NCBI GenBank assembly: GCA_944390285.1
Contig: CALXPN010000001.1
Location: 210,413 to 274,412, forward strand
Reading direction: 5' to 3'
Length of the DNA stretch: 64,000 nucleotides
From: an uncultured Clostridia bacterium
Lineage (GTDB): Bacteria; Bacillota; Clostridia; TANB77; CAG-508
Every line of letters begins with the position of its first letter. Position 1 is the first letter of the stretch. The position numbers and the translations under genes are program-made. The notes beneath the pieces are model-generated. The model made no database searches and had not been told where the DNA came from. It saw only the letters and a list, made by a program, of their open reading frames with translations. Below are positions 53,616-63,639 of the stretch, in pieces.

Positions 53616-54479
53616 TTACTTCAATATTTCTTTAATAATTCCATTTTTTATATCATTTATGTTGTATATATCTTCCATTGTATCAAAAGTTTCTTTTAAA
53701 TTATTTTTTGCCGAATACCAACCATAGCCATCAGTAAACCAAACAAACTTAAATCCATATACATTTTTAGATTCTTCAGCTAACATTTTATAGCTTCTAG
53801 CCGTTTCATTTAATTTAGAACCACTTGAAGCATAAAAATTAGTTTCAATTCCGTAAATACAATTATCTGTCTTTACAACAAAATCAAATCTTTTAGTTGT
53901 TTGATTTTGATTACTTATAAAAGACATATCTAATTTCCATTTTTCTTCAATTTTTTGTAAATACATTTCTTTAAAATATGTTTCATCTTTCTTAAAACCA
54001 GACTTAATTAAAAAATTTTCAATTAAATCTTCCATTAAATGTCCACCACGATTTTTTCTTGCATTTGAATTTAAACCAGATTCAACGCCTAAAACATAAT
54101 CATATAAATTATTTACTAAATGATTTTGGATTAAATCAAATAACCCTGTTTCTCTCATAAATGTTTTATATTGTTCTAATGTATAATTCATCTTTTTAAA
54201 ATCATATATAAAGTTATTTCCATCTTTATCAAGTACAAGTATTTCACTTTGTCTAACTGCTAAAAGAATTGGAATACATTTTAGTACTTCTGGATATTTA
54301 GCAATTATATTTTCAAAATCACTTTCAATATTTTTACTTCCAATTAAAGAATTTAATATATTTAATTCTACTTTTAATTTTTCAGCATTTTTATATACAG
54401 TTTCAAAATCTATGTAATATTTATAATTTGCAATACTATCTGTAAATGTTAATAGCCATTCGGAAAAATTTCTTGTCAT
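53616..54479 (-). CDS. dpnB: type II restriction endonuclease, DpnII/MboI family (GATC)
   Basis: Collinear similarity, from memory, to S. pneumoniae DpnII: TRNF.EWL, LNI.NSLIGSKNIE, NRGG, KRFDFV, NFY.SGSKLNETARSYK, WFTDG.GW, LKETFD, YNINDI. Confidence 0.85.
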   Translation of the reverse strand: MTRNFSEWLLTFTDSIANYKYYIDFETVYKNAEKLKVELNILNSLIGSKNIESDFENIIAKYPEVLKCIPILLAVRQSEILVLDKDGNNFIYDFKKMNYTLEQYKTFMRETGLFDLIQNHLVNNLYDYVLGVESGLNSNARKNRGGHLMEDLIENFLIKSGFKKDETYFKEMYLQKIEEKWKLDMSFISNQNQTTKRFDFVVKTDNCIYGIETNFYASSGSKLNETARSYKMLAEESKNVYGFKFVWFTDGYGWYSAKNNLKETFDTMEDIYNINDIKNGIIKEILK

Positions 54480-54489
54480 TTTCTACCTC

Positions 54490-55380
54490 CTATATATTTT
54501 CGAAAAAGTCTAAATCTAATTTTTTTATTTTATATTCTGTTTCTGTATAGCATCCAACATTATATTTAATCATTAGTTTTACTAATTTTTCTCCATCTAT
54601 TAAAATAATATTTTGATTTTCGGCATATTGAATCGCTGGTTTTCCAAAATAACTTGTTGTAATAAATACTCCTTTTTTTATATTTTTACCAGCCATTGCT
54701 CCCACGAATCTTTGAAGTTCAGGTCTAGAAATTCCACTATCTTTATCAAATCTTTTTGTTTGAATATATATCGTATTTATTCCTAACTCATCTTCTAATA
54801 CAATTCCATCAATTCCTTCATCATTAGTCTTAGGAGTTACAGTAGCATTTTCTATTTTTCCATATCCCATTGCTGTTATTAATTTTACTGCCAAATTTTC
54901 CAAAAAGTCAGATGTTTGATTCAATATTTCTTGTAGCAATTCACTTTCTAATTCAGAATTTAGCTTCGTAATAGCATTATCGATTTCTTCTTGAGGTGTA
55001 TATTTATCATCTTCATTATCTATGTTTTCTTTTTTATTATGTATTTCTCCTTTAAATTTTAAAAAAGACTCAAATTTTGATAATTCATTATTATCTATTT
55101 TTATATTTTTTTTTAATAATTCAAGTCCATCTTTTGTAATAGAAAATATTCCTCTTTTAGAACTAGATATAACTCCAGCTTTTTTCAAATAAGTAGCTGT
55201 CCAACCTACTCTATTAGTAAATAAATTTCTTCCACTGTTCAATGTTTCTTTTTGCTCTAATTCACTAATATTGTATACTTTTATAATATAGTTTCTTATT
55301 TCTTGAATTGTATGTTCTTTCTTGTCTTTCAAAACATTTAACATATCATTATACATTTCATCATATTTAGGTATTGGCAT
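54490..55380 (-). CDS. mrr: Mrr-like restriction endonuclease (Mrr_N wHTH plus Mrr catalytic domain)
   Basis: N-terminal LFTNRVGWTATYLKKAGVISS wHTH. C-terminal IDGIV...IYIQTKRF, a PD-(D/E)xK variant (D...QxK) as in Mrr. Confidence 0.75.
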   Translation of the reverse strand: MPIPKYDEMYNDMLNVLKDKKEHTIQEIRNYIIKVYNISELEQKETLNSGRNLFTNRVGWTATYLKKAGVISSSKRGIFSITKDGLELLKKNIKIDNNELSKFESFLKFKGEIHNKKENIDNEDDKYTPQEEIDNAITKLNSELESELLQEILNQTSDFLENLAVKLITAMGYGKIENATVTPKTNDEGIDGIVLEDELGINTIYIQTKRFDKDSGISRPELQRFVGAMAGKNIKKGVFITTSYFGKPAIQYAENQNIILIDGEKLVKLMIKYNVGCYTETEYKIKKLDLDFFENI

Positions 55381-56155
55381 TTTCTTTCTCCTTTATTTCT
55401 TTATATCTTTTTATAGATAAATCTAAATATTCTTTTTCATTGTCTATTCCTATGTATTTTCTATTTAATTTATTAGCCACAATTCCTGTGGTACTGCTAC
55501 CACAAAACGGATCTAATATTAAATTATTTTCATGTGTTGAAGCTAAAATTATTTTTTCAAGTATTTCTAGTGGTTTTTGCGTTGGATGTTTTCCTTGTTT
55601 CTTTTCAGATGGTTTTGTAAGACTAGTTGTCCAAACATCTTTCATTTGTTTATTATCATTTAATTTTTTCATCAAATCGTAGTTAAATGTATATTTTACT
55701 TTTGGTAAATTTTTCTTTGCCCAAAGTATAGTTTCTGTTGAGTGTGTAAAAGTTTTACAAGCCAAATTTGGAGGTGGATTAGTTTTTTGCCAAGTTATAT
55801 TATTTATAATTTTAAATCCATTTTCTTCAAGTGCCATACCTATTGAGTAAATATTATGCAAAGTACCACTAATCCATATTGTTCCATTATCTTTTAAAAC
55901 TCTATGGCATTCTTTAATCCATTTTTTATTGAAATCGTGTTTATCTTTTAAAGAATCACATTTATCCCAATTTCCTTTATTAACACTAACCATTTTTCCA
56001 GACTTACAAGTAATTCCATTATTAGAAAGAAAATATGGTGGGTCTGCAAAAATTACATCTATACTTTTTTCTTCGAATTTTTTTAGTATTTTTAGAGAAT
56101 CTCCATTTATTAAATTAAAATCATTTTCTTGAAAGTAAAACTTCCCTTTATACAT
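55367..56155 (-). CDS. dpnA: N6-adenine DNA methyltransferase, DpnA-like (beta class)
   Basis: IFADPPYFLSNNG catalytic motif followed by C-terminal AdoMet motif ILDPFCGSSTTG. Position after dam, as in the DpnII cassette. Confidence 0.85.
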   Translation of the reverse strand: MYKGKFYFQENDFNLINGDSLKILKKFEEKSIDVIFADPPYFLSNNGITCKSGKMVSVNKGNWDKCDSLKDKHDFNKKWIKECHRVLKDNGTIWISGTLHNIYSIGMALEENGFKIINNITWQKTNPPPNLACKTFTHSTETILWAKKNLPKVKYTFNYDLMKKLNDNKQMKDVWTTSLTKPSEKKQGKHPTQKPLEILEKIILASTHENNLILDPFCGSSTTGIVANKLNRKYIGIDNEKEYLDLSIKRYKEIKEKENANT

Positions 56156-56167
56156 TTATTTCTCCAA

Positions 56168-57061
56168 TTAATAATTTGTTATTAGTAATTCTGAAATGGC
56201 TTTTCTTCCATTTCCTTTTGAATTAATATTTCTATTTGCTAATACTTCATTCAACTTAAATCCATCATATAGATCTACAAAAAAGTTATCATCTTTATTT
56301 GTGTTTTTAGGATTTGAATTACTTAACATTAACTTTGCTCCTTTTAAAGATAGTTCTTTATAAAATTTTCCTAATTTTCTTTGATCATCATCATTAAATT
56401 CTTCTTTAGTATATGAAGTAAATCCAGAAGTTGTATTTAAAGGTCTATATGGTGGATCAAAATAGATAAATGTATCTTTATTTGTATATTTTTCTGATTT
56501 TTTATAATCTCCACAATAAAAATCAACATCTTGAATAAGTTTTGACAAGTTTCTCAAATTCGTAGAATCACAAATTGTTGGATTTTTTGCATTATTAAAA
56601 GGAACATTAAATTTATTATTACTATTTACTCTATATAAACCATTAAAACAAGTTTTATTTAAAAATATAAATTCTGATGCTCTTTTAACATTAATTATTT
56701 TATCTTGTAACTCATAAGAATTATATTCAGTTCTTATTTCATAAAAATATTCTTTTCTTTTAGCATTTTCTAGACTTTTATATTTCTTTTCTTTTTCATC
56801 TAATTTAGTAATAAGTTCTTCAACATTATTTTTAGCAACTAAATAACAATTAATCAAATCAGCATTAATATCAAAAGCAATAGCATTTTCGATATTGTAC
56901 TTTTGAAGCACTTCTATTAGCATAGCACCACCACCAACAAATGGTTCTATATATGTTTTTATTTTTCCATCTGTTAATTCTGTTGGTAAATATTTATTTA
57001 TTTGTCCTATAAGTTGAGATTTTCCCCCAGCCCATTTTACAAAAGGTCTTATTTTCTCCAC
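56168..57061 (-). CDS. dpnM: Dam-family N6-adenine methyltransferase (GATC), DpnM-like
   Basis: VKWAGGKS, EPFVGGGA, FDPPY. GTG start 6 nt after GGAGG. Confidence 0.9.
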   Translation of the reverse strand: MEKIRPFVKWAGGKSQLIGQINKYLPTELTDGKIKTYIEPFVGGGAMLIEVLQKYNIENAIAFDINADLINCYLVAKNNVEELITKLDEKEKKYKSLENAKRKEYFYEIRTEYNSYELQDKIINVKRASEFIFLNKTCFNGLYRVNSNNKFNVPFNNAKNPTICDSTNLRNLSKLIQDVDFYCGDYKKSEKYTNKDTFIYFDPPYRPLNTTSGFTSYTKEEFNDDDQRKLGKFYKELSLKGAKLMLSNSNPKNTNKDDNFFVDLYDGFKLNEVLANRNINSKGNGRKAISELLITNY

Positions 57062-57205
57062 TTTCTTCCTCCATTAATACTAATTGAATAATTTATTTAT
57101 AGCATATTTATATCATACTTTTGTTTATATTTAAATACTATATATAAATAATTCTGACAATTTAAAATATTATTACAATTGATATAAGGTAAAAAGAAAC
57201 TCGTA

Positions 57206-57724
57206 CTAAAAAATTTGATCTTCTTTATTTTCTACTTTTTTTCCATCTACATATTTTACAATTTTAACTTCTTCTCTCTCTTTTCCTATTATTATGTGTA
57301 AACCCAATTTATATTTAAAATTAGCATTTGGATCTGTTAGTTTTTTCAATTTAATTATATCTCTTTTCAATTCTCTTGTGTTTATATTGTCATACATTTT
57401 AAATTCTATTACTAAAATATTCTTATTACTATCTTTTCCTCTTTTATGTAAAATAAAATCAGGATAAATATTTTTTTCATTTTCACTATCGTCTAAGATA
57501 TTTTTCTTATCAAAACCATCTCTATCATATTCACAATCAATGCACAAATCATCATATGTTTTAGAATATTTTTTATCAAAAAAAATATAAAAATATTTTG
57601 AAAAATGAAAAACTATATTTCTTTCTGTAGAATTATTTTGTATCAAATATTTATCTTTTTCGTACAATTTGTTCAACGACATATCAACTAATTCTAATAC
57701 TTCTTTAATTATTTTTTCTTTCAA
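57206..57724 (-). CDS. hypothetical protein with PD-(D/E)xK nuclease-like motif
   Basis: ERNIV..., IYPDFILH and ILVIEFK spaced as in E...PD...(D/E)xK restriction-endonuclease-fold proteins; 172 aa. Confidence 0.4.
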   Translation of the reverse strand: MKEKIIKEVLELVDMSLNKLYEKDKYLIQNNSTERNIVFHFSKYFYIFFDKKYSKTYDDLCIDCEYDRDGFDKKNILDDSENEKNIYPDFILHKRGKDSNKNILVIEFKMYDNINTRELKRDIIKLKKLTDPNANFKYKLGLHIIIGKEREEVKIVKYVDGKKVENKEDQIF

Positions 57725-57791
57725 TTTAATTTCTCCTATTTTTTATTTAATATATTGTTAAGATACATATGCTGATAATATTAAATAAATT

Positions 57792-58736
57792 TTATAAACT
57801 ACTTTTATTATTTATAATCTCAACAATTTTTTGTCCATGAATCTTTATTTTAATATCTGATAGAATTTTTAAATTCTTAAGTTCTGTAATATTTTTAGGT
57901 CTATATTTTACTAATTTTTCTAATTCATCATTATTAAAAATATAATATGCTGGTATATTCTTTTCTTTTGAAGTTTCTCTTCTAAAATCTTTTAACTCTT
58001 TTTTTAATATTTCTTCTCTATTTTCTTTACAGCTATCAGCAATTTTATTTAATGAATTTTCTAATGATATACTATTTTGTAACCATTTTCTTAATTCTTG
58101 TTCATAATCTCTATCTATAATCTCATTGTAATTATTCATAATTCCAAATGCATTTTCTTTCATTTCCTTTGCTGTATATCTCATATCTTTATCTGTATTA
58201 TTTACATCATTTTGTAAATATTTTACTAAATTATCTGAACGAACTATTTTATTTTTAATTTCTTTAGGTGCAGATTTTATATCTAATATACTTTTTGGAT
58301 TAGTCATTACAACTATGTATTTACACCATTTATCAAAATTTCTCATTTGTAACTTATTAATTAGTTTTGTATTTTTACTATTCCAAATTTTCTTGAATAT
58401 TTCTATATGTCTTTCAACTTGTCTTATTGGAGAATAAATTCCCTCTCTTACTTTTTTTCTATTATATGTATATTCTCTAATAAATTCGCCTCTACTATTA
58501 ACACTTATATTTCCTACCAGATTTTTACATTCTATAAAATACATACTTGCTGGGGTAATAACTATATAGTCTATTTGTGCCGTTAAATCTTCATATTTCA
58601 TATTAATATCATGTAATACATACATTCCAATATTTGCATTTTTCAATTCAAATTCAATTTCTTTTTCACCTTTTAATCCTAATTCACATAATTTCAACTT
58701 TTGTCCGAATTTTATCATTACTTGGAAATTCAGCAT
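57792..58736 (-). CDS. NERD-domain protein with HRDC-like C-terminus (5' end apparently frameshifted)
   Basis: GEKEIEFELKN...LTAQIDYIVITP...FIECKN NERD core. C-terminal IPAYYIFNNDELEKLVKYRPKNITELKNLK is HRDC/HhH-like. Confidence 0.7.
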   Translation of the reverse strand: MLNFQVMIKFGQKLKLCELGLKGEKEIEFELKNANIGMYVLHDINMKYEDLTAQIDYIVITPASMYFIECKNLVGNISVNSRGEFIREYTYNRKKVREGIYSPIRQVERHIEIFKKIWNSKNTKLINKLQMRNFDKWCKYIVVMTNPKSILDIKSAPKEIKNKIVRSDNLVKYLQNDVNNTDKDMRYTAKEMKENAFGIMNNYNEIIDRDYEQELRKWLQNSISLENSLNKIADSCKENREEILKKELKDFRRETSKEKNIPAYYIFNNDELEKLVKYRPKNITELKNLKILSDIKIKIHGQKIVEIINNKSSL

Positions 58737-58824
58737 TTATTTTCTTTAAGGCTTTAATTTGATATTCTAATTCACTATCTTGCTTATAAAAAATTGTTTT
58801 ATCGAATTTTTTAAATAATTCCAT
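58684..58824 (-). pseudogene. detached N-terminal reading frame of the NERD gene
   Basis: ATG 58824 lies 8 nt after GGGAG. The 46 codons (MELFKKFDKTIFYKQDSELEYQIKALKKINAEF...) end at TGA 58684-58686. They overlap the NERD ORF in a frame offset by one nucleotide. Confidence 0.5.
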
Positions 58825-58891
58825 AAAGTTTTCTCCCATTATTTAATACATAATTTATATCATAAAATTTTTAAAGTCTCAATAAGTATAA

Positions 58892-58919
58892 CAAAAGACA
58901 CTTTAAAAAGTGTCTTTGT
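58892..58919 (-). terminator. hairpin with U-tract on the minus strand (possible end of an RT read-through transcript)
   Basis: AAAGACAC/GTGTCTTT stem (58894-58901 / 58910-58917). On the minus strand it is followed by TTTTGTTATACTT. Confidence 0.45.
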
Positions 58920-58923
58920 GGAA

Positions 58924-59282
58924 GCGGGTATTCATTGTTTTTGGCTTTGTAGCCGTATTTTGAGCATTTTTTGTTTCCCAATACGTTGACCAATTGAAAT
59001 AATAACAAATAATTTTGAATAATGTTATATAGCTTTATTCGGAATTTCCGAATTTTCCTTTCCTAAAAATTGTGCATTTGCACGTTTTTTAGGAATATCA
59101 AAAAACTTTTGTCGGTTTTTCCGGTAAAAGTTTTCGAGCTGTCGCAAAATTTGCGACAGTTAATTTTCAAATTTTCTTGTGTAATTCTTGTGTAGTTCAT
59201 TTTAAATTTTTGTAAATTTATGCATTTTTTTAATAAATTATAAAATCCATTTTAAATTTTTGGGGGTACCCGCATTTTTTTT
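58924..59282 (+). ncRNA. candidate structured ncRNA: inverted-repeat-bounded multi-hairpin element downstream of and antisense to the RT
   Basis: Closing helix GCGGGTATTC (58924-58933) / GGGTACCCGC (59264-59273), then A+T8. Hairpins at 58943-58954, 58954-58985, 59037-59053, 59060-59095, 59102-59134 and 59137-59161. All wobble pairs are G-U on the plus strand. No ORF. Confidence 0.45.
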
Positions 59283-59317
59283 AAATGGATTTACATTTTT
59301 ATTTTCTGTTAAATTTG

Positions 59318-60280
59318 CTATTTCTGTAAATTAACACTATTTTTTAATTGTTTCTTTAACCCTTGATAAGCATTTTTTACAGACAATTCCGAAAAATTAG
59401 CTAAACCTACTAGAGAATTTTTCAAAGAATTATCTATTTCTTTAATGTTTTTTACTTGAGCTAACTTTCTTTTTATTTTTAATCTTGTTTTATTTCCAAC
59501 AACTAATTGGTGCTCTGGTGAAATTACAAATCCAGTTATCTTCTTATAATCACTAGTGCTATATCTTATAGTTTTATTTTTGCTTATTTTTTGACCATAT
59601 TTTTTTACAATACCTTTTAGTTGTTTTTCTTCTTCAAAACTTATTTTTCTATTCGTAGACAAAGTTATATCATCTACATATATAGAACAAATTAACCCAT
59701 GGCATTTACAATAACCATAAACTTCATCAAACATATCTAAATTAGCTAAATATGATAGTATTTGACTTGTTGGTGTTCCTGATGGTAAATGATTTCTAAT
59801 TTTTATATGTTTTAATTTCATGTACTCAAATACATCATCATCAATATTTACATTATCAGAATCATAATTAATTGTTGTAATATCTGTACATAACTTTGCT
59901 ACATCAGCAGACATTTTTAATTTTCTATAAAAAAAATTATATACTTTATCTCTATGCGTATTCGGAAAAAACTTACTCATATCTAACTTTAACATACATT
60001 CAGAATTTATATGTGTTAAAGCATTATCATAAGCTGACCTTCCTTTTATTCCTGAAAAAACATATTCTGGAAATTGTATCTGATAAAGCTTATTTAAAAT
60101 TCTTTTTTGTAGTAGTTTTAATTTAAAATTAGGTTTTTCTAATAATCTTTTTTCTTCACTTATACAAACTTTGTATTTATTTAAAATAAGACCTACTTCC
60201 TCTGGAGTAGAGCTTATTAAATGATATAAATCTCTTTTTCTTTTTAAATTATATAACTGACAATTTTCAAAATTTATCAT
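59318..60280 (-). CDS. retron-type reverse transcriptase
   Basis: RT motifs KRLLEKPNFKLKLLQKRI (1), SGIKGRSAYDNALTH (2), LKLDMSKFFPN (3/A), LPSGTPTSQILS (4/B), IYVDDITLS (5/C), KKITGFVIS (retron VTG-like box). 320 aa with no extra domain. ATG 60280 follows AAGGAG. Confidence 0.8.
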   Translation of the reverse strand: MINFENCQLYNLKRKRDLYHLISSTPEEVGLILNKYKVCISEEKRLLEKPNFKLKLLQKRILNKLYQIQFPEYVFSGIKGRSAYDNALTHINSECMLKLDMSKFFPNTHRDKVYNFFYRKLKMSADVAKLCTDITTINYDSDNVNIDDDVFEYMKLKHIKIRNHLPSGTPTSQILSYLANLDMFDEVYGYCKCHGLICSIYVDDITLSTNRKISFEEEKQLKGIVKKYGQKISKNKTIRYSTSDYKKITGFVISPEHQLVVGNKTRLKIKRKLAQVKNIKEIDNSLKNSLVGLANFSELSVKNAYQGLKKQLKNSVNLQK

Positions 60281-60344
60281 AAATTCTCCTTTTCCTTTTA
60301 TAAGCAAATTAAAATTTAATTTACTTATAAAAAGAAAAGGTTAA

Positions 60345-60548
60345 TTAGTTTTTAGTGAAAAATTCAACAGCAATTTCAATTACTATCTTTGCTGTTTTGA
60401 TAACAAACTTAGTACTTATCAAAATCTCAAAACCGATAAGCGTTTTTACTAATTTCATTATCTTTTCTTCACTATAACCACAAGCTTTCCCCACTATCAT
60501 TATGCCAAATATCAAATAAACTATTGTGTTTGAGATTTCCATAATCAT
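60345..60548 (-). CDS. 67-aa membrane peptide upstream of the RT
   Basis: Strong RBS AGGAGGTG 5 nt before the ATG. One clear TM helix (TIVYLIFGIMIVGKACG) plus an amphipathic C-terminal half. 64 nt upstream of the RT gene on the same strand. Confidence 0.6.
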   Translation of the reverse strand: MIMEISNTIVYLIFGIMIVGKACGYSEEKIMKLVKTLIGFEILISTKFVIKTAKIVIEIAVEFFTKN

Positions 60549-60582
60549 TTACACCTCCTTTTTTTAGATTAGACTTATCAAA

Positions 60583-60960
60583 TTACATTAGTGCACTTAA
60601 TGTAATAAGTAAGGCCCCTTCAATTCTAATCTTAGAAAGTGTACAGCTTGCGAGTGGTTCCTAATTAACTTTACCTCAGAAGTCCCTTCAAGAAATAAGA
60701 TAACAGTTCTACAAGAACCATTAAGATTATTTCTAAAGCCATGGCCAACTTTACAAAAAGAATTTTGAAAGTCAAACATTATCTACACCTAATTTAGTTA
60801 GTGTTTTTAGTTGATGTAGGCCATGCTGTTAAGAACTTCTATATATGTATATAGTACTTTATTAAATAAATTTTCTACATACAAAATATGCAGGATATAT
60901 AAATATCCTTCGCTATTTCTAGCCAAACAAGGGGACTTATAATCGAGCCTCGTGAGGAGT
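60583..60960 (-). ncRNA. candidate retron msr-msd-like ncRNA upstream of the membrane-peptide/RT genes
   Basis: Promoter-proximal inverted repeat TAAGTCCCCTT (60939-60929) / AAGGGGCCTTA (60620-60610), 10 of 11 complementary, with a G immediately 3' of the left arm. Internal stems at 60892-60909, 60748-60772 and 60691-60734. Terminal hairpin at 60583-60605. Confidence 0.4.
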
Positions 60961-60966
60961 GCTTTT

Positions 60967-60995
60967 ATTATATGACCATACCAAAGAAAAATCAA
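60967..60995 (-). promoter_or_regulatory. sigma-A promoter driving the candidate ncRNA / RT operon
   Basis: On the minus strand: TTGATT (60995-60990), 17-nt spacer, TATAAT (60972-60967). Confidence 0.5.
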
Positions 60996-61102
60996 GAACA
61001 TTTTTTTATTTCTTATAAAACTTCATGTACATTTCATAAATCTATAGCAATTTTTGTCTAAATATAGTATAATTAGCACATAAAAATTATATGGAGGCTA
61101 AA

Positions 61103-61843
61103 ATGAATAAATTAGAAAAATTTGTACAAGAAGCAAAAGAATTTTCACAAAAAGACATAACTTCTCGAGACCCAGCATTTATTGCTTGGAATAATTCTTT
61201 AATTAGATTTTTAGAAAAAAAATATGGAACTAACTCTTCGACAACAAAAAATTTTAAAAAAAGAACTTATTCTTTAGGAGCATACGCTCTTGGAACACCT
61301 GAAAGTAGTTTTATAAAAGTTTATAAAAGAGATATGCAAGTAACGTTACGTGAGTTAGAAATACTATTAGAAGAAGAATTAACAACTGAGGAAATTGAAA
61401 AACAACCTACATCTAATGAAAAAATAACTACCAAAAAAGTATTTATCGTTCATGGACGTGATGATAGTAAAAAATATGAACTTTCAGGATTTTTATATGA
61501 ACAAGGTTTAACTCCTATAATTTTGCATGAACAAGTAAATAATGGTCAAACAATCATTGAAAAAATTGAAAATAATAGTGATGTAGCCTGTGCTATTATT
61601 CTATTAACACCAGACGACGAAGGTAGATTAAAATCATCAACTAATGAATTAAAAACTAGAGCTCGCCAGAATGTAATTTTTGAAGCAGGATATTTTATGG
61701 GTAAATTAGGTAGAAACAGAACAATATTATTAAGCGGAGTAGAAGAAAAAATGTCAGATATCGATGGCATTGTATACCTTGATATCAATAATTATAAATC
61801 ATCTTTATTACAAGAACTAAAATCTTTAAATCTAATAAATTAA
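61103..61843 (+). CDS. TIR-like (COG4271/CAP12-type) nucleotide-binding domain protein with unknown N-terminal domain
   Basis: C-terminal KKVFIVHGRDDS...PIILHEQ...GQTIIEKIE...ACAIILLTPDD...ARQNVIFEAGYFMGKLGR matches the bacterial TIR-like/SLOG-type pattern. ATG 61103 follows GGAGG. Confidence 0.65.
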   Translation: MNKLEKFVQEAKEFSQKDITSRDPAFIAWNNSLIRFLEKKYGTNSSTTKNFKKRTYSLGAYALGTPESSFIKVYKRDMQVTLRELEILLEEELTTEEIEKQPTSNEKITTKKVFIVHGRDDSKKYELSGFLYEQGLTPIILHEQVNNGQTIIEKIENNSDVACAIILLTPDDEGRLKSSTNELKTRARQNVIFEAGYFMGKLGRNRTILLSGVEEKMSDIDGIVYLDINNYKSSLLQELKSLNLIN

Positions 61844-61858
61844 AAAAGGGGATAAAAT

Positions 61859-62155
61859 ATGGATAACAATATAAAAATAATGTCTATACAAGAAGATATG
61901 AAAGAAATTGAAGCAGTATTAAATAATAATATCACTGATATCGATATCCAAATCTTAAAAAAATTGCACAGAAAAATAGATAGTAAATACCAAGCTTGCA
62001 TAAAAGACTGGAGCAAAAGCTTATATTGTTGGATACCAGATTTTGGATTTAGTTACGATCTTTTAGACACAACTTCTTTAATTGAAAATTTAGAATCTAT
62101 GTTATGTAAACTTTCTTCGTATTCTATGGGATTTAATGATATTAAAAACAAATAA
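61859..62155 (+). CDS. hypothetical 98-aa protein co-transcribed with the TIR-like gene
   Basis: Starts 16 nt after the TIR-like stop and is preceded by AAGGGGA. No motif recognised. Confidence 0.5.
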   Translation: MDNNIKIMSIQEDMKEIEAVLNNNITDIDIQILKKLHRKIDSKYQACIKDWSKSLYCWIPDFGFSYDLLDTTSLIENLESMLCKLSSYSMGFNDIKNK

Positions 62156-62188
62156 ACGGGAGGTTTTTATCCCGTTTATTTGTTTTTT
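62150..62188. terminator. bidirectional terminator shared by the TIR-like operon and the Fic gene
   Basis: 12-bp stem AAATAAACGGGA/TCCCGTTTATTT covering both stop codons; T6 follows on the plus strand. Confidence 0.8.
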
Positions 62189-63150
62189 AAAATTTTCCAA
62201 GTTCCTGTTTTAGGAGAACCTATTCTTTTAATAATTTTCTTATCTTTTAAATTTTTTATATTATAAGAAATTCCATCTCTAGTTAAACCTAATTTTTCAG
62301 CCATTTCATTTTGTGTAATATTAGGATTCATCTTTATTAAATTTATAATTTTTTCTTCTGTAGTTTCTTTTGTTGAATTCTGCTCTATAATTATTTTATC
62401 TATTGTTTCATAAATCATTTTCAACATAAATTCTATAAACTCAGTTGATTCACCAATTTTATTACAATTATCTATAATTTTATAATACTCTTCTTGATAT
62501 TGTTTTATTAAACTTTCAATAGGTACATATTCGAAAATCTCTTTCCATTTAGAAAGTAAAGCTGATTGCCAAAGTCTAGCCATCCTACCATTACCATCTC
62601 CAAAAGGATGTATAAAAACAAATTCATAATGAAATACAGAAGAAAGTATTAAAGGATGAACTATATCCTTAGATTCTTTCATCCAAGAAAATAAATTTTC
62701 CATTAATTCTGGAACTAATTTTTCTGATGGTGCAACAAATATACATTTATCTCCATCATAAACACCTTCACCATGACTTCTAAATCTTCCGCTCTCTTCT
62801 TCTACTAAAAATGTCATTATTCCATGAACTAATTTTAAATCTTCTATAGAATATGGATTTATTTGAGAAATTTTATTGTATGCTTCATATGCATTTTTTA
62901 CTTCTTGAATATCCTTTTTATCTCCAATTACCATTCGACCATTTATTACATCTTCAACTTGAAATAAAGACAATTGATTATTTTCAATAGCTAGAGAAGA
63001 ATGTATAGAATTAATTCTATTTTGTTTTCTTAATTCTGGCTTTTTATTTAAATTTATATAACTATTTATTTCTCCAACTTTTTCCATTATTTTTGAAACA
63101 TAGTCTAACATCTTATCAGTTATTTTATATGGTGGTATATATTTATCCAT
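62176..63150 (-). CDS. Fic-family protein with C-terminal wHTH
   Basis: Fic motif HPFGDGNGRMARL. C-terminal ITQNEMAEKLGLTRDGISYNIKNLKDKKIIKR is a wHTH. Confidence 0.85.
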   Translation of the reverse strand: MDKYIPPYKITDKMLDYVSKIMEKVGEINSYINLNKKPELRKQNRINSIHSSLAIENNQLSLFQVEDVINGRMVIGDKKDIQEVKNAYEAYNKISQINPYSIEDLKLVHGIMTFLVEEESGRFRSHGEGVYDGDKCIFVAPSEKLVPELMENLFSWMKESKDIVHPLILSSVFHYEFVFIHPFGDGNGRMARLWQSALLSKWKEIFEYVPIESLIKQYQEEYYKIIDNCNKIGESTEFIEFMLKMIYETIDKIIIEQNSTKETTEEKIINLIKMNPNITQNEMAEKLGLTRDGISYNIKNLKDKKIIKRIGSPKTGTWKILKNK

Positions 63151-63220
63151 TTTTCCTCCTTCAGTAGTTTTATCTACACCTTTATTATACTACATTTAAC
63201 AGATTATATCAATATTTATT

Positions 63221-63256
63221 GTGTAGTTTATTATGTAGTTTATTGTGTAGTATTTA
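63221..63256. repeat. three tandem 12-nt repeats upstream of the Fic gene
   Basis: GTGTAGTTTATT / ATGTAGTTTATT / GTGTAGTATTTA. The last unit forms an 8-bp hairpin with TACTACAC (63257-63264). A further inverted copy TACTACA lies at 63188-63194. Confidence 0.7.
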
Positions 63257-63258
63257 TA

Positions 63259-63639
63259 CTACACTTTTATTCTCTCAACTATAAACAAATCTGCAGGTGC
63301 AAATTGAAAGTTATCTAATTCGTTTTTAGAAACCCACTTATAATCTTCATGTTCTAATAATCTAATTTCTCCATTTATCTTTTTACATTCTAAAGCAATT
63401 AAATTAATATTTTTTTCTGGATAATTAAATACTTTTTCTGACAAATAAGATTTTACTTCTATATCAATATCTAATTCTTCTTTTATTTCTCTTACAATTG
63501 CATTCTCACGTGTTTCATTAGGTTCTATTTTTCCTCCTGGAAATTCCCATAAACCACCTTGAGCTTTCTTTAAATTTCTTTGAGTTATTAATATTTTTCC
63601 ATTTTCATCTTTTATTACTGCAGCTACTACATTAATCAT
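63259..63639 (-). CDS. mutT: NUDIX hydrolase, MutT-like (8-oxo-dGTP diphosphatase family)
   Basis: Nudix box GGKIEPNETRENAIVREIKEELDI; 126 aa. Confidence 0.8.
   Translation of the reverse strand: MINVVAAVIKDENGKILITQRNLKKAQGGLWEFPGGKIEPNETRENAIVREIKEELDIDIEVKSYLSEKVFNYPEKNINLIALECKKINGEIRLLEHEDYKWVSKNELDNFQFAPADLFIVERIKV

Follow-up and report, generated by a model that had tools for sequence, protein, structure and literature searches.

Among retrons, Type VI is the only type whose reverse-transcribed DNA has been proposed to activate a toxin instead of holding it off, and the Type VI systems studied so far number two, both proteobacterial and both dependent on a helix-turn-helix (HTH) protein. 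In Retron-Vpa2, a Type VI retron of Vibrio parahaemolyticus, a hybrid RNA (hyRNA) of ~470 nt combines the msr-msd with the coding sequence (CDS) of a small protein (SP) and contains a sequestered ribosome-binding site (RBS), inverted repeats linking its arms, and 7-nt direct repeats in the msd and in the riboregulator (Zhang et al. 2025, 10.1101/2025.10.22.683967). Upon triggering, the multicopy single-stranded DNA (msDNA) of Vpa2 accumulates and derepresses SP translation, also in trans (10.1101/2025.10.22.683967). In Sen3, the noncoding RNA lies within ~280 nt of SP, the RBS lies in the basal stem, the inverted repeats IR1 and IR2 flank SP, covariation is seen within the SP CDS, and a stem-loop just 5' of the 5' repeat is required (Garcia-Rodriguez et al. 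2026, 10.64898/2026.04.27.721009). Two DNA sizes were reported for both Vpa2 (10.1101/2025.10.22.683967) and Sen3 (10.64898/2026.04.27.721009), with only the long form being active in Vpa2. The HTH protein, which is of the Cro/C1 type, has its gene overlapping the RT or directly upstream of it, and is encoded in ~78% of Type VI entries (10.64898/2026.04.27.721009), acts as a repressor or antitoxin in both characterised systems (10.1101/2025.10.22.683967; 10.64898/2026.04.27.721009). Here, we compare these systems with positions 60583-60995 of a 64,000-nt stretch of DNA from an uncultured Clostridia bacterium (contig CALXPN010000001.1; the whole stretch is hereafter called the window), a region that is, with a probability of roughly 0.8, the non-coding 5' part of a ~670-nt hyRNA belonging to a Type VI-like retron.

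An earlier note on this DNA had tentatively placed here, upstream of a reverse transcriptase (RT) operon, a retron noncoding RNA (ncRNA) of ~330 nt closed by two complementary arms, a1 and a2. The sequences quoted in that note were all found at the positions given for them, and the kind of element that it named, a promoter-driven, structured, and non-coding region of an RT operon, agrees with our analysis, whereas its boundaries and several of its details had to be revised.

Reverse transcriptase, operon layout, and relatives

On the minus strand, the promoter (60995-60967) is followed by ~417 nt of non-coding DNA, the SP gene, a 25-bp hairpin, and the RT gene. The RT matches the PADLOC profile RT_VI at 5.7e-64 (214 bits, 266/279 profile positions; runner-up RT_III-A at 4.5e-33), an assignment of type that was made from the profile score and not from phylogeny, and it is also matched by Pfam RVT_1. 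Its motifs NALTH, YVDD, and ITG correspond to NAxxH of region X, the catalytic YxDD, and the VTG-type triplet of region Y, the first and last of which are the retron RT motifs as defined by Mestre et al. (2020, PMC7736814). Residues N86, A87, H90, Y201-D204, T249, and G250 are invariant across 20 homologues. No open reading frame (ORF) was found between SP and RT, either in the window, where the 64-nt gap is taken up by the hairpin, or in any related locus.

The comparison with relatives drew on 302 RT homologues (E <= 1e-20), mostly from gut metagenomes, whose DNA context was taken from genome and metagenome collections and by exact-protein look-up. About 45 related loci (RT identity 43-93%) fall into three clades and share one layout (promoter, non-coding RNA, SP, long hairpin, and RT), with the same order in every locus that includes upstream DNA. 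Clade A (RT 55-93% identical) comprises uncultured Clostridia in three subclades, with the window in A-i; clade C (L076 and L078) has RTs that are ~50% identical, and clade B, from uncultured Bacilli or Tenericutes, has RTs that are 41-46% identical. Phage and plasmid collections gave no DNA match to the region, a pattern scan of sequence collections returned no loci beyond the relatives already in the set, and viral contigs turned up only ~24%-identical RTs, which were not used. A permissive Rfam scan of 57500-62500 returned chance matches only and no family for the region.

The case for an RNA rests on these relatives, since the promoter and the a1/a2 pair are only modestly unusual in the window alone. 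Although the TTGATT/TATAAT pair is the top promoter-like site of 58700-61200, such sites number 16 there against 16.8 expected by chance, and pairs of a1/a2 quality number 3 against 2.0 +/- 2.2 in shuffles of this AT-rich stretch. The near-consensus promoter that the earlier note had recognized becomes credible because it is conserved at a fixed distance in the relatives, the -35/-10 pair being equally distant from the conserved RNA in 45/45 related loci in which the first msr-like stem-loop (SL1) was located. The predicted transcription start lies near 60959. The single-sequence fold of 60560-60965 was also more stable than shuffles (z = -3.6).

A decayed protein gene or mobile-element remnant, in which stems arise by chance in AT-rich DNA, would account for the 60- and 64-aa ORFs of the window and for a partly similar 52-aa ORF in L005. 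This explanation is very hard to credit. The non-coding part holds at least three stops in each of the six frames in 23/23 representatives, and it ranges from 266 to 418 nt across relatives with length differences that are not multiples of three, and therefore the gap is not a decayed gene; moreover, conservation tracks helices with compensatory changes, and the phage and plasmid collections offered no mobile-element counterpart. The view of the earlier note that the gap lacks credible coding capacity and that the 60-64-aa minus-strand ORFs are not genes thus holds across the family.

A conserved helix over the SP ribosome-binding site

Among 19 clade A and C sequences, RNAalifold predicts pairing of an anti-Shine-Dalgarno (anti-SD) strand with the SD region of SP together with a second helix, P (Table 1). 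A separate run on 13 clade B sequences produced an equivalent architecture built from different sequences (AUAUCUCC:GGAGGUAU and AUAAUUAU:AUAAUUAU). Covariation counts, here and below, are based on 19-28 related sequences, equivalent to perhaps six independent lineages, and they were judged against a "slid" control in which the pairing partner is shifted along the alignment. For the riboregulator, 97.2% of the cells in the A+C alignment are paired, compared with 38-48% after the partner has been shifted by 1-3 columns; changes on both sides are seen in four pairs, and only 0-1 of 500 shuffles match the observed values. These sequence comparisons indicate that the SP RBS is sequestered by a conserved helix.

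The apical part of this riboregulator is the 8-bp hairpin at 60583-60605 that the earlier note had described as a possible attenuator of read-through. The hairpin itself is real and covaries within clade A, while subclade A-iii, L018, and clades C and B carry a shorter hairpin instead. The attenuator role was rejected: the hairpin is not followed by a T-run, A-iii and L018 lack it, and it lies within the conserved helix.

Long-range helices between the non-coding part and the SP gene

The SP gene appears as a 61-68-aa ORF in all loci that include the region upstream of RT, and the start kept in all relatives corresponds to ATG 60542; an upstream ATG at 60548 is found only in the window, where an ACG-to-ATG change adds two residues (MI). 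Three helices, counted on a script-built alignment of concatenated conserved segments, join the non-coding part to this gene (Table 1). The extreme 5' end of the transcript, the leader L, pairs with L' inside the SP CDS, and when the longest helix between the first 20 nt and the whole SP CDS was located, it fell at homologous codons in 31/32 sequences. L:L' measures 7-10 bp in clade A and is longer in clades C (11-14 bp) and B (11-16 bp), and its variants covary with synonymous changes (TCCTCAC:GTGGGGA, TTCTCAAC:GTTGGGAA, TTTCTAC:GTAGGAA, TTCCTTACTA:TAGTAGGGAA, and TTTCCAG:TTGGAAA). The second helix, X:X', amounts to just 6 + 2 bp in the window and varies as AATCATAAAC:GTTTATGGTT, GACCGCGAAC:GTTTGCGGTT, and TGCAAACA:TGTTTGCA; for this helix, only the alignment-based test carries weight. 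The third, IR1:IR2, reaches over the SP stop codon and was also predicted unguided by RNAalifold on a reduced alignment of conserved segments only.

Since covarying helices join the 5' leader, 60659-60650, and 60669-60661 to the SP gene, the RNA is read as running through that gene to the hairpin at 60340-60288, and the ~330-nt boundary drawn earlier is too short. Across the three clades, 11 of the 22 pairs predicted for this terminal hairpin show compensatory changes. With the leader, X, and IR1 pairing with SP codons 16-18, SP codons 19-22, and the stop codon, respectively, the toxin message appears to be built into the RNA scaffold. Because L' and X' adjoin on the coding strand, coaxial stacking of their helices is possible, and the relation of L:L' to X:X' and IR1:IR2 would be either a pseudoknot or a set of alternative states.

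In clade B (L007-L046), a T-run follows the SP-RT hairpin, which resembles an intrinsic terminator, and the RBS of the RT gene lies further downstream; the clade A hairpin lacks such a T-run and overlaps the RBS of the RT gene. IR2 with the terminal hairpin was also considered as a permuted a1/msr and rejected, there being no conserved G after IR2.

Small hydrophobic toxins whose RBS is hidden by long-range folding of the mRNA, including pairing of its 5' end, are known from type I toxin-antitoxin mRNAs such as hok and tisB. The region might likewise be only a translational-control leader for SP that the RT neither copies nor needs, and the sequestered RBS and the pairing of the 5' end with the CDS, which are the best-supported features of the locus, would fit such a leader, while copying of the region into cDNA by the RT is what we infer. 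We nevertheless consider this improbable: the RNA occurs only beside this RT lineage, its a1, two msr-like hairpins, and variable hairpin region form a retron layout, and the homologous systems Vpa2 and Sen3 make RT-dependent DNA from the corresponding region.

The msr-like block, the variable region, and the repeats paired with a1

Downstream of the leader, the GAGGCTCGA motif shares its GCTC across all clades, and its GGCT could form a small hairpin with AGTC of a1, a pairing seen by eye only. As the earlier note had described, a1 is then followed by msr-like hairpins, SL1 and SL2, and this arrangement, which is that of a retron msr, recurs in every clade. SL1 has a clade B counterpart at the equivalent position (GUCAA-GAAA-UUGAC), and SL2, noted before as a stem at 60892-60909, is a covarying hairpin in most relatives of every clade with highly diverse stem sequences. 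The G that directly follows a1, G60928, which had been put forward as the branching G, is limited to clade A; in clades B and C, no G stands at that place, and the first G after a1 belongs to the GG that opens SL1.

The msd-like region comprises two hairpin domains in minimum free energy (MFE) folds, with hairpin 1 spanning about 60886-60838 and hairpin 2 closed by AGAAGTTC (60840-60833), whose partner is the 3' half of DR1, a G-rich direct repeat; this pairing covaries. Of the 23 representatives, nearly all gave a hairpin domain followed by a DR1-closed hairpin, with L002 and L075 as exceptions, and the fold stability of the region ranged from z = -2 to -6.4 among them. The stems at 60748-60772 and 60691-60734 and the 7-bp long-range pair CATGGCC/GGCCATG (60825-60819 with 60746-60740) that were listed before all exist, and they are lineage-specific features of this variable part. 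By analogy with the described systems, the region is the putative template of the RT.

DR1 recurs downstream as DR2. The two copies share the core GGGGC, and their spacing is 64-72 nt in all sequences of all clades (68 nt in the window). DR1 has two possible partners, a1 (AAGTCCC:GGGACTT) and the 5' strand of hairpin 2, and DR2 stays unpaired in the internal loop that separates helix P from the apical hairpin. In the window, a1 forms seven perfect pairs with DR1, or 9/10 with one bulge, compared with 9/10 and a T.C mismatch with DR2; the latter corresponds to the complementarity of TAAGTCCCCTT (60939-60929) and AAGGGGCCTTA (60620-60610) at 10/11 positions by the count of the earlier note. That complementarity is present, and both arms are conserved in every relative; what had been called a2, however, is DR2, the downstream copy of a direct repeat whose upstream copy pairs with a1 at least as well. 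Across the family, the T/C position of a1 stands opposite DR1 as T:A, T.G, or C:G and never as C:A, and in L075, within a C:G subclade, a1, DR1, and DR2 are altered jointly (GTCCC / GGGAC / GGGAC). These patterns indicate, from sequence comparison, that the a1/DR1/DR2 triad is real and jointly constrained and that a1:DR1 is a better candidate than a1:DR2 for the duplex closing the msr-msd domain, with a1:DR2 as a live alternative that may represent another functional state.

The proposal of a canonical ~330-nt msr-msd, closed by a1 (60939-60929) and a2 (60620-60610), with branch G60928 and reverse transcription starting just 5' of 60621 and proceeding through the conserved block into the hairpins, builds on this second duplex. 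A pair of this quality with at least five G:C pairs arises in 4% of shuffles, both arms are conserved with DR2 changing along with a1 in L075, and DR2 is available in the riboregulator loop; furthermore, copying from DR2 would unwind or replace the anti-SD strand, in line with derepression through reverse transcription and with the pair of DNA sizes described for Vpa2 and Sen3. Outside the subclade of the window, on the other hand, a1:DR2 is only 5-6 bp long, the T of a1 in the group of the window opposes C in DR2 and A in DR1, the duplex would cross the anti-SD:SD and P helices, both of which covary, clades B and C lack G60928, and the RNA goes on past a2 and is structurally tied to the SP gene. 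On balance, this proposal is possible though doubtful, and a hyRNA that continues through SP is preferred.

A further a2 just 3' of DR1 was tried and rejected, as its by-eye partners in the leader and the GAGGCTCGA motif (CCTCA:TGAGG, CTCG:CGAG, and AGCTC:GAGCT) shift between subclades.

Table 1. Coordinates of the RNA elements, long-range helices, and genes of the retron locus
Feature	Position in window	Strand	Sequence or pairing	Remarks
Promoter	60967-60995	-	-35 TTGATT (60995-60990), 17-nt spacer, -10 TATAAT (60972-60967)	Conserved in relatives
Leader L	60952-60958	-	TCCTCAC; partner L' GTGGGGA (60494-60488) in SP	Extreme 5' end of transcript
GAGGCTCGA motif	60943-60951	-	GAGGCTCGA	GCTC common to all clades
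a1	60929-60939	-	TAAGTCCCCTT, core GYCCC(C)	Complementary to DR1 and DR2
SL1	60912-60924	-	GGCTAGAAATAGC	msr-like hairpin; RNAalifold prediction
SL2	60893-60908	-	GGATATTTATATATCC	msr-like hairpin; covarying
msd-like region	60690-60892	-		Two hairpin domains in MFE folds; sequence unalignable between subclades
DR1	60678-60689	-	GAAGGGACTTCT	Upstream copy of direct repeat
Anti-SD	60634-60643	-	TACACTTTCT; partner SD region AGGAGGTGTA (60559-60550)	
P, 5' strand	60625-60632	-	AGATTAGA; partner TCTAATCT (60573-60566)	
DR2	60610-60621	-	GAAGGGGCCTTA	Downstream copy of direct repeat; a2 (60620-60610) of the earlier note
Apical hairpin	60582-60606	-		Part of riboregulator; covaries in A-i and A-ii
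P, 3' strand, and SD	60550-60573	-	P 3' strand (60573-60566), A-rich spacer, SD AGGAGGTGTA (60559-60550)	
SP	60345-60542	-	Contains L' (60494-60488) and X' (60485-60476)	65-aa hydrophobic small protein, putative toxin
IR2 and terminal hairpin	60288-60348	-	IR2 (60348-60340); 25-bp hairpin (60340-60288)	3' strand overlaps part of the RT ribosome-binding site
RT	59318-60280	-		Retron RT, 320 aa; PADLOC RT_VI, Pfam RVT_1, retron motifs
L:L'	60958-60952 with 60494-60488	-	Leader with SP codons 16-18	97.7% paired, 43-61% slid; 2/8 pairs double-changed
X:X'	60659-60650 with 60485-60476	-	X AACCACTCGC with X' GCTTGTGGTT, SP codons 19-22	92.7% paired, 28-42% slid; 5/10 double-changed
IR1:IR2	60669-60661 with 60348-60340	-	IR1 GTTAATTAG with IR2 CTAATTAAC, over SP stop codon	97.5% paired, 6-55% slid; 3/9 double-changed

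Proposed mechanism

By analogy with Retron-Vpa2, the following course of events is proposed. The transcript would begin with the leader, a1, the two msr-like hairpins, and a two-hairpin template region ending in DR1, continue with a conserved 68-nt block and later the SP CDS, and end in the terminal hairpin just 5' of the RT gene. At rest, SP translation would be repressed. The RT would copy the msd region into single-stranded DNA that accumulates on phage infection, and a segment of this DNA, or a1 released from DR1, would pair with DR2 and the riboregulator, so that the freed RBS would allow SP to be made and the infected cell to be arrested. Ribosomes translating SP would in addition be expected to melt L:L', X:X', and IR1:IR2, reinforcing the open state.

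A more speculative version, which we hold to be unlikely, is that in this HTH-less lineage the toxin is controlled wholly by RNA and DNA through a three-way switch of a1, DR1, and DR2. Here, a1 would prime on either repeat: priming on DR1 would yield a short, inert cDNA, and from DR2 the RT would have to traverse helix P and the anti-SD strand, producing a long msDNA with an anti-anti-SD at its 5' end that could open other copies. If true, such a switch would explain the constant 64-72-nt spacing of the repeats and why msDNA comes in two sizes in Vpa2 and Sen3, the long form alone being active in Vpa2.

Points that weigh against a Type VI-like hyRNA

Several observations count against reading the region as part of a Type VI-like hyRNA. 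The RT type, the conserved architecture, and the helices with their covariation are direct observations; the transcript ends, cDNA synthesis, SP toxicity, and the trigger are what we infer, the toxicity by analogy with Vpa2 and Sen3. SP matches no family above threshold in Pfam, NCBIfam, or PADLOC, and its weak DUF7070 and TrbC matches are inconsistent between homologues. At the level of RNA, single-sequence shuffle tests of X:X' are not significant in this AT-rich DNA (p = 0.04-0.4), and L:L' crosses both X:X' and IR1:IR2. In single-sequence ensembles, a1 pairs with neither repeat (probability 0.00-0.07) and DR1 prefers the strand of hairpin 2, and the GCCCC/GGGGC core of a1, DR1, and DR2 is nearly invariant, which makes covariation blind to which duplex primes.

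No HTH gene was found in or beside the operon when neighbouring ORFs were compared with PADLOC and Pfam and when the clade B HTH was searched against the window by tblastn. A 79-aa Cro/C1-type HTH_3 ORF occurs in four clade B loci only (L012 2059-2298, L013 2066-2305, L042, and L043), immediately upstream of the hyRNA promoter, and would be an alternative position of the Type VI HTH partner. Finally, one metagenome-assembled genome contig (L001, 2285-2738) has a tRNA-Leu(CAA) and unrelated sequence in place of the non-coding part up to the 3' strand of P while SP and RT are kept intact, which is odd if the non-coding part restrains a toxin. L001 is either the natural equivalent of the nc-hyRNA deletion that is toxic in Vpa2, or a chimeric assembly.

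Downstream element and neighbouring genes

The element at 58937-58954 (GTTTTTGGCTTTGTAGCC, plus strand), which the earlier note had thought possibly related to the sequence after the left arm, has only the 4-bp GGCT stem in common with SL1, a trivial resemblance. A repeat search found none linking it to the non-coding region, and a covariance model of the 5' module matched the whole window only at 60887-60963 (82 bits; next 11.7 bits, E = 0.57) and not at this element, so that no second copy of the module was found and the supposed kinship falls away. The RT gene is followed by a ~400-nt non-coding tail (58894-59318, minus strand) with several hairpins, a terminator-like hairpin at 58917-58894, and a perfect 15-nt direct repeat (59198-59212 and 59248-59262); the tail (59318-58915) is conserved only in the three closest relatives (L054, L055, and L056).

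The divergent plus-strand gene at 61091-61843 encodes a PDC-S35 / CAP12-PCTIR TIR-domain protein, with a 98-aa ORF without family match as its partner (61859-62155, plus strand). Only in the window and in L056 (RT 90% identical), the closest relative with upstream flank, does this pair lie next to the retron. The TIR gene was on this ground rejected as the retron effector and is probably a separate defence gene of the same island. The defence island surrounds the retron (53616-57724 and 62176-63639); profile scans labelled PD-Lambda-3_A (57206-57724) and SoFic (62176-63150) in it, and further ORFs read by eye from their translations appear restriction-enzyme-like, Mrr-like, and DNA methyltransferase-like (two), with a 126-aa ORF (63259-63639) that is NUDIX-like by eye. 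The NERD-HRDC gene at 57792-58736 (minus strand) is overlapped by a 51-aa ORF (58684-58839) that reads like its missing N-terminus, and the locus 57792-58839 looks like a frameshift or pseudogene.

Comparison with known systems and significance

The locus was found to carry the components of a retron ncRNA (a1, SL1, SL2, two variable hairpins, and two a1-complementary repeats) and, of the Type VI features, the RT profile, an embedded SP gene, RBS sequestration, and a repeat shared by msd and riboregulator, with the HTH gene being absent. Its RT profile and RNA design accordingly place it among Type VI-like retrons, as an HTH-less variant that is not a full member in the original sense of Mestre et al.

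These findings suggest that gut Firmicutes-type lineages share a conserved hybrid-RNA design, with its sequestered RBS, its repeat shared by template and riboregulator, and its inverted repeat around the toxin gene. The HTH-less design offers a natural minimal system of RNA, SP, and RT in which control at the RNA level can be separated from control at the protein level. The new helices, drawn from three divergent clades and joining the 5' end and X to toxin codons 16-22 and a1 to both repeats, lead to testable predictions on the priming site and on the release of translation.

Compared with canonical retrons, the locus resembles the msr-msd of Retron-Eco1/Ec86 (PMC7736814) in its succession of a1, G, msr hairpins, msd hairpin(s), and an a1-complementary segment, and its RT carries the NAxxH and VTG-type motifs of canonical retrons (PMC7736814). 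Unlike in Retron-Eco1/Ec86, the RNA continues past a2, two alternative a2-like repeats are present, the effector gene lies inside the RNA, and the proposed branch G is not family-wide. With type I toxin-antitoxin mRNAs, the locus shares a small hydrophobic protein whose RBS is hidden by the folding of its own mRNA; in contrast to them, no antisense RNA takes part in the model, and release is proposed to proceed via reverse-transcribed DNA.

The resemblance to Sen3 and the cl2075 lineage is closer, with the ncRNA within about 300-400 nt upstream of SP and the SP RBS in a conserved stem. As in Sen3, an IR1-IR2 pair flanks SP, the SP CDS shows selection for RNA structure, the long stem-loop has a variable central part, and a conserved stem-loop lies just 5' of the 5' repeat, which is clear here in clade B. 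The position of IR1 differs, being 3' of the msd region rather than inside SL3. Sen3 also has an HTH protein antitoxin and constitutive SP, whereas the family of the window is without HTH and therefore any restraint of SP must be RNA-based or supplied elsewhere.

With Vpa2, the locus shares a single transcript in which the msr-msd precedes the SP gene, an RBS in the riboregulator, a Type VI-clade RT by profile, inverted repeats that join the arms with one repeat beyond the SP stop codon, and a short direct repeat at the 3' side of the msd and in the riboregulator loop. It differs from Vpa2 in having no HTH gene between SP and RT, an SP of unrelated sequence as far as testable, a hyRNA of ~670 nt rather than ~470 nt, a leader that pairs inside the SP CDS, and an upstream repeat that MFE folds place in a stem and that is complementary to a1 as well. 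The family is further set apart by its hosts, which are uncultured gut Clostridia and Bacilli rather than Proteobacteria.

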